From: Octopus vulgaris | Lineage: Eukaryota | Reading direction: 5' to 3' | Length of the DNA stretch: 64,000 nucleotides | NCBI GenBank assembly: GCA_951406725.2 | Contig: OX597819.1 | Span: 27,218,001-27,282,000, forward strand | Part shown: positions 9,108 to 32,250 of the stretch, in pieces | Layout: each line of letters opens with the position of its first letter | Position numbering within the stretch: the stretch's first letter is position 1 | The notes under the pieces: generated by a model | The model's database searches: none | Told to the model about the DNA's origin: nothing | Seen by the model: the letters and a program-made list of their open reading frames with translations, nothing else | Program-made: the position numbers and the translations under genes

Positions 9108-9523
9108 TATTTCTTACTGCCCACAAGGGGCTAAACACAGAGAGGACAAACAAGGACAGACAAACGGATTAAGTCGATTATATCGACCCCAACGCTTAAC
9201 TGGTACTTATTTAATCGACCCCGAAAGGATGAAAGGCAAAGTGGGCCTCGGCGGAATTTGAACACAGAACGTAGCGACAGACGAAATACCTATTTCTTTA
9301 CTACCCACAAGGGGCGAAACACAGAGAGGACAAACAAGGACAGACACACGGATTAAGTCGGTTATATCGAACCCAGTGCGTAACTGGTACTTAATTTATC
9401 GACCCCGAAAGGATGAAAGGCAAGCTCGACCTCGGCGGAATTTGAACTCAGAACATAACGGCAGACGAAATACGGCTACGCATTTCGCCCGGCGTGCTAA
9501 CGTTTCTGCCAGCTCGCCGCCTT
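9108..9523 (-). mobile_element. SINE B dimer (head + two tail-1 units) inserted into a SINE A (9083-9682, minus)
   Basis: Internal junction at 9290/9291. TSD AGGCTTCT(G/T)TCAGTTT at 9088-9103 and 9524-9539. Confidence 0.85.
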
Positions 9524-10819
9524 AGGCTTCTTTCAGTTTCTGTCAACCAAATTCACTCACAAGACTCTGGTCGGCCCGGTGCTATGAAAGAAGATGCTTG
9601 CCCAAGGTGCCATGCAGTGAGACTGAACCTAAAACCACACGGTTGGGAAGCAAGCTTCTTAACCACACAGCCACACCGGCGCCTTGTTATGCTGATAAAA
9701 ATGATTATTCTTTATTTTAACAAATTCTAAGAAGGTTGGTGTTAAGGCTTCAAGAATTTATTGTTTTTCGTTCGTTTGTTTGCTTGTTTTTTGCATTTTA
9801 GGGTTGGGGGAATCTTTTTCCGTATGGATTTTCACATATCGTCAGCGGGCGGGGAGATTCAAATTTGAATACGACTGATATTACACCGACAGCTGAGGGG
9901 ACATCCCCACCTCTGGCATAAATGTCCAATCATTGTTTTGTCACAAGTTAATTTAAACATGTGACGTAATATTTCTTTCTGAAGCATTTTGACGCGATAA
10001 TTATTGTTGACACAATACGTGTTTATGTGTGTGTGTGTGTATATGTACGTATATCTGTAAGTTTGTATGCGTATGTATTCATTTGTATGTTTATATATGT
10101 ATCGTGTATACGTGTGTGTATGCCTTTGTATGCATGCACGCATACATATACATACATATATACATACATACATATATATATATGTATATATATATATATA
10201 TATATATATATATATATATATATATATATGTATGTATGTATGTATACATGTTTGTATGTATGTATGTATGTATGTATGTATGTATACATGTTTGTATGTG
10301 TGTATGCATGCATTGTATTGACTTCTTCGAAAGAAATGTTACTGCTGTTCATATACTTAGTGTTTTTGTTATTGTTTTTGCTATGATGTAATCTTCTGTT
10401 AATAATATTGTTTGATTAGTTATTGCTGATATTGTTGTTGTTGTTGTTGTTTTTGTTATTGTTGTAGTTGCTGCTACTATCCTTATTGCTGTTGCTGTTC
10501 CTATTGTTGTTGTTGTTGTTACAGCTGTTGTTGCTGCGATATTTGTTTTGTTGATGAGCCATTTAGTAAAAGATTTAGCTGTTGTTCTTGTAAACGAAAC
10601 AGCAAAAGAAAAGAAAAAAAAAACAAGAAACATTTAATTAAAGCAGTTTAAATTTCTATCAATACAAAAAGAAATAATAAAAAAATTAATGAAAAGAAAA
10701 AAAAAAAAATATATATATATATATATATAAAGAAATAATGCCAAAAGAAACCTATGTAGGGAGGGTGGTGGAGATGTGGGATATTGAAATTAAACTCCGC
10801 CCCGACCCGACCCGACCTG

Positions 10820-11028
10820 GAAGAAGAAGAAGAAGAAGAAGAAGAAGAAGAAGAAGAAGAAGAACAAGAAGAAGAACAACAAGAACAAGAATTAGAACAA
10901 GAAGAACAAGAAGAAGAACAAGAAGAAGAACAAGAAGAAGAACAAGAACAAGAAGAACAAGAAGAACAAGAAGAAGAAGAAGAAGAAGAAGAAGAAGAAG
11001 AAGAAGAAGAAGAAGAAGAAGCAGCAGC
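10820..11028. repeat. (GAA)n with CAA interruptions
   Basis: Visible directly in the sequence. Confidence 0.95.
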
Positions 11029-11977
11029 ATGGTGCATTGAACCTGTTTAATTTAAATTTGAATAACAAGAAGTTAATTTGAAAGGAAAAGATGGAAGAAT
11101 ACACAGCAAGAAATAGGGAAGGGGTAGGCTTAAGGATATTATTAAACGCGAAATAAAAGGAGAGCAAGACAAAAGGAAAAAAAAAAAAAGCAAAAAATTA
11201 TTAAATTGCTTAGTTTAAAAATCAACAACAGACATTTGTAAGAAATATTAGAATGATGTCGTTTGTAAAACAGGATGAAGAGAATTCGAAGAAAAATTTT
11301 AGAGCGGGGCGTTTATATTGTAATAATACAAATAATAATAATAATAATAATAATAATAATAATAATAATAATGAATAATAATAATAATGTGAAATGTTGT
11401 AATAGATAAAGAAATGGGTTCTGTATGAATAATAATAATAATGATGATAATAATAATAATAATAATAATAATAATAATAATAATAATAATAATGATAATA
11501 ATAATAATGATAATGATAATAATGTTGCAGATATGATTGTACACTAGTTTTTGTTGCCGGAGAGAAGCGGGGAATGCAAAATGAGAAGTTTGTTATGTGG
11601 TGGTATGGTGGTGGTGGTGGTGATTAATAATAATCGTCGTAGTTGTCATCAACATCGCTTTTGATCATAATAATAATGTAACCGTGGTGGTACTCGTGGG
11701 GGATACACATAGTGATAATGGTAGTGGTATTAGTACTGTTGTTGTTGATGTTGTTGTTGTTGGTGATGGTGGTGGTGGTTTTCACGGTGGTAGTAGTGAT
11801 GTTAGCTGTGGTGGTAGCGATGTTAATGATTATAATGATGGCAATAATGATGATAATGATGATGATGACGACGACGACGATGATGATGCTGATGATGATG
11901 ATAATGGTGATGAAAGCAATAACGGGATAATCATAATAATAATAATTGGATTATGGCTGAACAACAATGAGAAGATA

Positions 11978-30902: not shown

Positions 30903-31145
30903 GTAGAGCAGCGGACTCGCGGTCGAGGGATCGCGGGTTCGAATCTCAGACCGGGCGATATGTGTGTGTTTTTCAGCGAAACACCTAAGCTCCACGCGGC
31001 TCCGGCAGAAGGTAATGGCGAACTTCTGCTGACTCTTTCGTCACAACTTTCTCTCACTCTTTCCTCCTTCATCTTGCAAGGAAACCGCCAAGGAAACCGG
31101 TAAACCGGCCCTATGAGCCAGGCATAGCTTGAGAAGGAACAAACA
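30903..31145 (+). mobile_element. SINE C head/body with the GAAACCGG tail
   Basis: Head like 26830; tail like 1288-1350. Confidence 0.7.
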
Positions 31146-31164
31146 ATATAGAAAGATGAGCAAC

Positions 31165-32250
31165 TTTGCTTTTCATCATTTCTTTCTCGATAAAATATGT
31201 ACCAGTTAAATACTGGTGTCAATGTAATCGACTTACTCCCTCCCCCAAAAATGCTGACCTTGTGCAGACTTTGAAACCATTATTATTAGCAGTAGTAAAG
31301 CGTCGAGCTGGCAGAATCGTTAGCACGCCGGGCGAAATGCGTAGCCGTATTTCGTCTGCCATTACATTCTGAGTTCAAATTCCGCCGAGGTCGACTTTGC
31401 CTTTCATCCTTTCGGGGTCGATTAAATAAGTACCAGTTACGCACTATAATGAACTTAATACGTCTGTCTGTTCTTGTTTGTTCTCTCTGTGTTTAGCCCC
31501 TTGTGGGTAGTATTTCGTCAGTTTTTACGTTCTGAGTTCAAATTCCGGCGAGGTCGATTTACCTTTCATCCCTTCGGGGTCGATACATTAATTACCAGTT
31601 GCGTACTGAGGTCGATCTAATCGATTGGTCCCTCCCCAAAAATTTCGGGCCTTGTCCCTAGAGAAGGAAACAAAGCGTTAGCAAGCCGGGCGAAATGCTT
31701 AGCGGCATTTCGTCTGTTTTTAGTTTCTGAGTTCAAATTCCGCCGAGGTCGACTTTGCCTTTCATCCTTTTGGAGTCGATAAATTAAATACCAGTTACGC
31801 ACTGAGGTAGATGTAATCGACTTAATCCGTTTGTCTGTCCTTGCCTGCCCCCTCTGTGTATAGCCCCTTGTGGGTAGTAAAGAAATAGGCATTTCGTCTG
31901 TCTTTAAGTTCTGAGTTCAAATTCCGCGGCGGTCGACTTTGCCTTTAATCCTTTTGGAGTCCATGAATTAAGTACCAGTTGTGTACTGGAGTCGATCTAA
32001 TCGACTCGCCTCCCCTCCCTCCCAAAATGTCGTGCCTTGTGCCTAGAGTAGAAAAGAATTGTTAGCCCGCCGGGGCAAAATGCTTAGCTTCATTTCGTCC
32101 GTCCTTACGTATTGGGTTCGAATCTCGCCAAGGGCAACCTTGCTTTCTTCGTTTCATTGTCGATATATTTATGAACCAGTTAAACATTGGTGCTGAAGTA
32201 ATCGACTAACCCGCTCCCCACAAGTTGCTGGTCTTGTGCCAAATTTGAAA
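31165..32250 (+). mobile_element. SINE B cluster with two head + tail1 + tail2 dimers
   Basis: Junctions at about 31510 (with a short deletion) and 31887/8. Confidence 0.85.

Follow-up and report, generated by a model that had tools for sequence, protein, structure and literature searches.

What brings the 3' end of a retroelement to the same base inside other members of its own family, again and again? The question is raised by 64,000 nucleotides of Octopus vulgaris (NCBI GenBank assembly GCA_951406725.2, contig OX597819.1, positions 27,218,001 to 27,282,000 of the forward strand), a stretch of microsatellite-rich animal DNA that we call the window and in which all positions below are counted. 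A short interspersed element (SINE) found here carries one of three tails, and many copies with the first of these, tail 1, end against a fixed point in the head of a further copy. A sequence-only reading of the window had named eight such junctions and proposed that young tail-1 copies insert site-preferentially into older family members. Our analysis confirms the junction as a real, recurrent feature, and it probably arises by repeated nested, site-preferring insertion of younger tail-1 copies into older members of the family.

The element, its 3' end and the head site

The family is about 230 bases long, with a single head and body and three alternative tails (tail 1, tail 2a and tail 2b); tail 1 ends in AAAGAAATA and tail 2a in ..AAAAGAAT. 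It is non-coding, short, dispersed and of high copy, as a SINE is, and BLAST places 41 pieces in the window. SINEs make up about 11.6% of the O. vulgaris assembly according to PMC13282606. ARAGORN called 0 transfer RNA (tRNA) genes in the window, and a search of two regions with Rfam, at E up to 10, brought up no tRNA. A tRNA origin of the head is likely, to judge from words that, compared by eye with the box consensus, are A-box-like and B-box-like. Ohshima and Okada reportedly described tRNA-derived Octopus SINEs named OK, OR1 and OR2 in 1994, and the family may well be one of these or may stand in repeat libraries.

Solo copies define the element's ends. A full-length tail-1 SINE at 3444-3672 (minus strand), with C rather than G at the head site described below, lies between perfect 13-bp (base-pair) target duplications at 3672-3684 and 3431-3443. 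Another tail-1 copy at 50883-51112 (plus strand) has a duplication of 11-12 bp (50874-50885 and 51113-51123). The GGTA that had been noticed after 51112 is present, but it is the start of that copy's own duplication. A third, at 47997-48229 (minus strand), sits in a CA microsatellite, where no duplication can be defined, and the site does not follow it. The tail-2a copy at 24733-24909 (minus strand) has a perfect 22-bp duplication. Since the solo tail-1 copies end at the identical AAATA and carry duplications of 13 and 11-12 bp, this is the true 3' end of the retroposed RNA. With the dimer at 9108 included, the tail-1 form moves as a retroposon with target duplications of 11-16 bp.

The point of joining lies in a hairpin of the head, for example at 50914-50941 (plus strand), where the target base, called +1, is 50930 and stands between the two box-like words. 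As RNA the hairpin has 12 pairs, partly G-U, and a 4-base loop; as DNA it has 10. The junction, which the sequence-only reading placed in the loop of a 12-bp hairpin, is at the boundary of loop and 3' arm, the joined base being the first of the 3' arm. Folding of the whole element is no better than that of shuffles (z -0.82).

Exact junctions with this site account for 8 of the 14 tail-1 ends in the window. Seven are on the minus strand (9291/9290, 21241/0, 21425/4, 21595/4, 24301/0, 24484/3 and 26146/5), the eighth is on the plus strand (31887/8), and all lie at the bases given by the sequence-only reading. The joined motif is GG(T/C)ATTT(C/T)G. A variant suspected near 31510 was found at 31508/9, where a small deletion between two GTA words has taken the last tail-1 bases. 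None of the 18 tail-2 ends is joined in this way (8/14 vs 0/18, Fisher p = 2.9e-4). Joining by chance is excluded because only about 25 such sites occur in 128,000 strand positions, the binomial having been computed with 7/14 ends. C stands at +1 in 5/18 heads and in 0/8 exact junctions (p = 0.023, G against non-G). The sequence-only reading had overlooked a tail-1 junction in antisense, at 22060/1. The share of tail-1 ends at the site, 8 or 9 of 14 in a window picked for the pattern, lies above the 20% of flanks that marks a target in PMC4494074.

Beyond the window, we drew on contigs alone, from four of the 24 runs listed (X1, X4, X5 and X8), one for each of four organism labels. The contigs were aligned on the solo copy at 3360-3760, to which joint coordinates refer, and their number, 190,628-456,945 per run, is not a copy number. 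Six RNA runs contain 4-8% of the words, and no RNA run of the organism contains the stretch. The exact joint, 3626>3444, is present in 4/4 runs, in 18, 43, 19 and 17 contigs (X1, X4, X5 and X8), and a tail-variant joint, 3626>3446, in 11, 26, 11 and 8. Joint counts are incomplete; among the 15 joints listed of about 797, 3626>3444 is the sole exact internal landing point of the tail-1 end. In the three runs with a row available (1256, 678 and 549 contigs), the target motif appears when the most frequent letter is taken at each position after the tail-1 end, for which roughly 12-14% or more of those ends must carry it; as a genome-wide share, this 12-14% of loose-ended contigs is only a rough lower bound. 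Loose ends have median lengths of 113-255 bases, and many tail-1 ends therefore lead elsewhere. A stands at +1 in 25% of the depth at junctions and in an equal 25% of the depth over heads, a figure from one run (X4) and part of one table, as if junctions were copied from aged targets. Neither the antisense 3' joint nor one with C at +1 appears in the 15 listed of about 797, though this does not prove that they are absent.

Several joints were noted in passing. Joint 3600>3649 represents a SINE form in which 10 other letters replace 48, removing the entire head hairpin and with it the target site; X1, X4 and X5 each have a single contig of it, with high depth, and the X8 column has none. Joints 3600/3605>3444 and the opposite-strand joints 3599/3600/3605>3671 are possible site junctions and 5' ends of antisense insertions in older copies; their intervening letters were not readable, hence they were left out of the counts.

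Probable nested insertion and the missing second head

The steps that follow are our inference from two observations, the retroposition of tail 1 and the arrival of many tail-1 3' ends at one head base. A partner long interspersed element (LINE) would nick a family member at or next to the R|GTATTT word of the head hairpin, whose near-palindromic sequence would allow the nick on either strand. Tail-1 RNA would be copied from its 3' end by target-primed reverse transcription, and the complementary DNA (cDNA) would usually anneal to the upstream head of the target, giving a stack of one head, n units and the remainder of the old copy, with the heteroduplex resolved to a new, old or mixed head. 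Each junction would rebuild the site and leave it open to further insertion, and unequal exchange might occasionally add a unit.

A full-length insertion at +1 should leave two heads. The second is missing except in joint class 3671>3613 (2, 1, 1 and 2 contigs), in which an old head and site bases +1 to +15 are followed by a full-length head; this is a non-seamless 5' junction with a 15-bp duplication, a size in the range of the solo copies. The usual absence of the second head would be explained by the homology of the cDNA to the target's own upstream head, to which it anneals, and the whole head is available for such annealing. For R2, cDNA is reported to anneal to homologous upstream target without duplication, seamless "anneal" 5' junctions being the main outcome (PMC11331408). 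Heteroduplex resolution to new, old and mixed heads would fit both the tail-1-type heads of three arrays and the tail-2-marked heads of two. The tail-2 marker at +16 is carried by the first unit in 2/6 arrays (24146 and 31673) and by no other of the 14 tail-1 units.

The stack at 21058-22125 may hold a split target. Its minus-strand array comprises a full-length young tail-1 copy at 21595-21826 (divergence 4.4% in the body, 0% in the tail), two headless tail-1 units at 21241-21594, and at 21078-21240 an old tail-2b copy lacking all that lies 5' of the site, with the tail-2 state at 5/6 body markers. Upstream of the array's head lies a tail-1 copy on the opposite strand, 21849-22060 (plus), whose 3' end is joined ungapped, at the mirror position of the hairpin, to the reverse complement of the 5' half of a head. 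This lone half, 22061-22100 (minus strand), has the tail-2 state at 3/3 head markers and may be the partner of 21078-21240. The outer flanks of the two halves form a worn 19-bp duplication-like match at 22107-22125 and 21058-21075, with 15/19 bases matching (p = 0.006 against random flanks, 0.024 against shuffles); when the array's own head is taken as the boundary there is no match (p = 0.94). Its markers and flanks suggest that at 21058-22125 four tail-1 units interrupt a single old tail-2b copy and that a worn target duplication encloses the whole. The head-to-head inverted pair at 21764-21891 would fold into a long hairpin, and similar opposite-strand joints recur in 4/4 runs; weak Rfam microRNA-family matches there, below the gathering score, correspond to this inverted pair.

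The other five arrays are dimers and a trimer. At 9108-9522 (minus strand) a full-length tail-1 copy, 9291-9522, precedes a headless tail-1 unit, 9108-9290, and a 16-bp duplication with 1 mismatch encloses the pair (9524-9539 and 9088-9103). Between its units, 16 body columns and the subfamily markers are different. The trimer at 24146-24716 (minus strand) consists of a head with tail-1 unit 24484-24716, tail-1 unit 24301-24483 and tail-2a unit 24146-24300. Its first and last units share tail-2 markers at +14/+16, a 14-bp duplication-like match surrounds it, and the tail-2a copy 24733-24909 lies directly upstream of its head. The dimer at 26040-26352 (minus strand), in an ATT/ATC microsatellite, joins tail-1 copy 26146-26352 to a headless, internally deleted tail-2b unit, 26040-26145. 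What had been taken for one array at 31298-32254 is really two dimers and a tail-2b copy. Each dimer (31298-31670 and 31673-32059, plus strand) is a tail-1 copy with a tail-2a unit, and the deletion at 31508/9 shortens the junction of the first. In the second, GGCATTT starts both units, both of which carry C at +3, and tail-2 markers are common to them at +14/+16, as a duplicated target would leave them. The proposed plan of a head, tail-1 units and a final tail 2 needs amending: tail 1 closes the 9108 array, and two tails, 2a and 2b, had been taken together as "tail 2".

Two side observations concern tail-2a copies. Their ends at 31670/31673 and 32059/32060 (plus strand) join heads at a second fixed point (n = 2). 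It lies in the A-box-like word, immediately 5' of (C/T)GTTAGC, and the head itself has AGAAT there, which makes this a self-joint of microhomology type. Old tail-2a copies at 2750-2960 (minus strand) and 7300-7508 (plus strand) have 13 non-consensus variants and their upstream flank in common, and so represent an inverted segmental duplication and not two insertions.

Divergence from the consensus gives some measure of age. It averages 5.7% in tail-1 bodies and 12.9% in tail-2 bodies (14 vs 14, p = 4e-5), the latter inflated by the use of a pooled consensus. In the 21075 array it climbs to the 3' unit, through 4.4, 5.3 and 8.8 to 12.4%. The rise toward the 3' unit that had been suggested is thus clear here, but absent from the 24146 array (8.8, 7.1 and 7.1%); the 3' unit is the most diverged in 5/6 arrays, which is not significant (sign test p = 0.11).

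The lack of a gradient at 24146, the non-significant sign test and the inflated tail-2 figure all weigh against nested insertion, and they do not stand alone. The flank match of the split copy is worn (15/19) and is one of 14 boundaries tested, and the antisense copy 21849-22060 has no duplication of its own (p = 0.51). That junction begins GGTAC where heads give AGCAT; 3 positions differ from the usual head, and 4/24 from the closest heads. Because its bases deviate in this way, it may be a product of recombination via the near-palindrome. Three of the six arrays (9108, 26040 and 31298) begin with a tail-1-type head and retain no 5' half of an older copy, which a dimeric or template-jump origin fits equally well. 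Joint 3671>3613 may be a single event copied several times, and the 25% for A at +1 has the narrow base given above. No partner LINE or endonuclease was found among reading frames near tail-1-like ends in the window, and wider sequence scans gave chance matches only. Three of the 14 tail-1 ends (3444, 9108 and 47997) show no GGTA, and a full-length head-to-tail joint, 3671>3444, occurs in 51, 43, 24 and 34 contigs, more than the exact site joint in 3/4 runs and equal to it in the fourth. Given the ends without GGTA and these numerous head-to-tail joints, the site preference is strong but partial, and it is common to related species.

Other possible origins of the arrays and the aiming of insertion

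Whether the arrays record one event or many can be judged from the distances between their units. Within-array tail-1 pairs differ by 13.4, 5.9, 9.2, 18.6 and 13.6%, a sixth pair by 3.4%, and the between-array mean is 11.2%. Homogeneous in-place amplification, as in SINE-derived satellites, is therefore not seen, 1/6 of these pairs being close. In a tree of 27/29 units (2 were too short), mostly unresolved, the only within-array pair that groups is 21425-21594 with 21241-21424 (support 99/92). These two units are identical over their first 96 aligned bases and then show 9 differences. The two units, in which private variants had been noted, are best read as a local duplication or recombinant, the sole part of any array to be explained in that way. 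Among the last units of different arrays all three tail types occur; the rare variants that these units have in common number 3 at most, as between unrelated copies, and no common dimer master is evident from the rare variants of last units in the 6 arrays. With distant units within arrays and no rare variants common to last units, the arrays are neither local duplications nor copies of single circles. The origins that would have counted against the original proposal, a multimeric master or local duplication, were checked with results in its favour, save in units 21241-21594.

One or a few ancient junction events could have given rise to dimeric or multimeric masters that were read through, retroposed whole by the tail of the last unit and reshuffled in the common body through template switching or recombination, with no targeting. 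Neither the solo copies nor the 9108 dimer has a run of four T, which permits such read-through; the single 16-bp duplication around that dimer, the tail-1-type heads of three arrays and the flat 24146 array are also as expected. We nevertheless regard this origin as unlikely, given the three tail types and background-level sharing of rare variants among last units and the variation of junction bases with the target (GGCA at 31888; A at +1 in 25%), and it does not predict the split old copy, the antisense junction or the joint with a 15-bp duplication. More improbable again is that SINE RNAs were cut at the hairpin loop and that reverse transcriptase, on reaching the cut 5' end of one RNA, jumped to a tail-1 RNA at its 3' end and built a mixed concatemer in one insertion. 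Template jumps by R2 are reported in vivo (PMC3414825), and jumping would account for there being only one head and one outer duplication and for units that stem from different source genes; yet this scheme requires free RNA ends exactly at the tail-1 end, predicts units of equal age and tail-2 ends at the site (0/18 seen), and gives neither tail-2 markers at the starts of first units nor an antisense joint. Both schemes leave the tail bias, the target-type markers and the split locus unexplained.

Local tandem duplication or unequal crossing-over within single loci, a process invoked for SINE-derived satellites, would yield the pair 21425-21594 and 21241-21424, identical over 96 bases. Even that pair differs at 9 of its last 85 aligned bases against 0 of its first 85 (p = 0.003), other within-array pairs are as distant as unrelated copies, and independent duplications, with no homology to guide the join, would not all break at the same point. 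It is refuted as a general cause, and we think it very improbable for the arrays as a whole; it is a secondary process that requires a pre-existing junction. We give least credence to the alternative offered by the sequence-only reading, in which unit-length RNA is cut at the loop, circularised and copied by rolling-circle reverse transcription, like retrozymes. The ends of a unit can indeed pair, the last six bases of tail 1 with +3 to +8, in a 5-pair junction hairpin (-4.0 kcal/mol, 30-mer). One circle, however, would give identical units, and those of an array differ by subfamily markers; the arrays finish in a different tail, and an antisense junction exists. Rfam gave no ribozyme at the gathering score in the window, nor at E up to 10 in two regions, the hammerhead core word occurs on 1/12 strands scanned, in antisense, and folding of the unit is no better than shuffles (z -1.31).

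Nested, site-preferring insertion is the best-supported reading, as first proposed; the likeness then drawn to R2 and Tx1, with targeting by an endonuclease, is unproven: no partner LINE was found, and RNA pairing could aim as well. About half of our confidence goes to a sequence-preferring endonuclease and a little under half to pairing of the nicked strand with a read-through RNA whose end is GGUA(UUU), and the two could work together. An endonuclease is favoured by junctions that follow target variants, with GGCA at 31888 as in the upstream head and A at +1 in a quarter of the depth, and by the C-bearing heads, none of which appears at an exact junction. RNA pairing is favoured by the lack of a four-T run in clean copies and by the sister copies ending at 22060 and 51112, which precede GGTA at unlike targets; 47997 groups with them in the tree but lacks GGTA. 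TATTT is described as a moderate terminator of RNA polymerase III (Pol III), at about 42% in mammalian, not octopus, constructs (PMC8466645), and the same word also stands in the SINE head. Tentatively, then, the aiming could lie in the SINE RNA itself: Pol III would read from a copy at the site into GGTATTT and stop, and the RNA end would prime the next insertion at the same base. On this rather doubtful proposal the seven bases at the RNA end would be identical to the target in every family head, and RNA ends would fall at AAAUAGGUAUUU. Heads with C at +1 could then be escape variants, and target specificity would be self-made and heritable.

Three headless pieces in the window carry a tail-1 3' end (81-89%) without SINE head or body, at 12050-12103 and 12642-12694 (plus strand), which lie in a local duplication, and at 44902-44943 (minus strand). 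They may be the 3' ends of the partner LINE or those of a different SINE, and no reading frame is tied to them. A LINE 3' end at 60950-61480 (plus strand) has a C-terminal reading frame that matches an Octopus vulgaris protein at 83% identity, and a short TTGAA repeat at its end; its reverse transcriptase fragment, 60953-61393, was rejected as the partner because its 3' end is unlike tail 1. Pfam gave no match for 2/2 reading frames. A translated search with the junction found no longer relatives among 20 candidates, which is weak evidence. As for relatives elsewhere, viral contigs gave 0 matches in 2 scans and plasmids none, and the 15 matches to metagenome contigs and 2 short ones to prokaryote genomes were all chance. 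A full-length match to U6 small nuclear RNA at 60777-60882 (minus strand, 104.5 bits), between an upstream TA run and a T run downstream, may be a gene or a retrocopy. By eye, 12900-13290 (plus strand) resembles a decayed mariner-like transposase, and the frame tried there contained stop codons.

Comparison with known systems

The known targets of site-preferring retroelements are RNA genes, microsatellites or other transposons. By aiming at one base in the promoter region of its own family, a SINE subfamily would have a huge supply of harmless landing sites, and it would take over existing promoters and split older competitors. Nested insertion would also be a route to SINE arrays without unequal crossing-over, the stacks would record the order of subfamilies and, if the RNA end aims, this would be a natural form of homology-guided retrotransposition. 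The literature searched, which did not extend to Repbase, Dfam or Ohshima and Okada 1994, held no paper whose title or opening describes this junction.

Multimeric SINEs alike in outline are the TSD-(SINE)n-TSD arrays of blood clam, bounded by target-site duplications (TSD; PMC11481361), the SINE-derived satellites of squamates (PMC10702118) and the Dip multimers of jerboa (PMC8466645). As described there, a complete head may be followed by head-truncated units, the period is 150-190 bp in some, and multimers can account for much of a family. In clams and squamates the cut that bounds each unit falls in the tail or body, which is ascribed to unequal recombination (PMC11481361, PMC10702118), and Dip multimers are full-length and head-to-tail (PMC8466645), whereas every unit of the octopus arrays has a complete functional 3' end and the units come from different source copies. 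Non-LTR (non-long-terminal-repeat) retrozymes (bioRxiv 10.64898/2026.07.22.740005) likewise form short tandem units, with a proposed rolling-circle spread; the octopus SINE differs in having no hammerhead and units of mixed origin.

R2 and its non-autonomous SIDEs share with the octopus element an exact 3' junction in a multicopy target transcribed by a polymerase, and a seamless 5' junction where the RNA carries upstream target (PMC11331408, PMC3414825). R2, in the accounts given there, has a strict target in 28S ribosomal DNA and a 5' ribozyme, while the octopus SINE also inserts elsewhere with duplications of 11-16 bp, and no ribozyme was found. Tx1L, which inserts in Tx1D, and other members of the Tx1 clade likewise use a fixed site in another repeat (PMC4494074). 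They are autonomous LINEs, and a Tx1 partner for the octopus SINE would be a guess, as no reading frame is tied to tail 1.

The closest precedent appears to be the crocodilian SINEU-3, whose partner is Tx1-Mar (Kojima 2015) and of which 313 of 347 copies have Mariner-N4_AMi at their flanks (PMC4494074). It too is a non-autonomous SINE that strongly prefers a site in another repeat, with tandem copies read as sequential insertions, both orientations represented and two target regions (PMC4494074). Its target is an unrelated DNA transposon and its partner is known (PMC4494074); for the octopus SINE the target is the head of its own family, only one tail of three is joined to it in this way and most second heads vanish by homology. 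By analogy, the octopus SINE would resemble SINEU-3 and Tx1-Mar at its 3' end and R2 at its 5' end.

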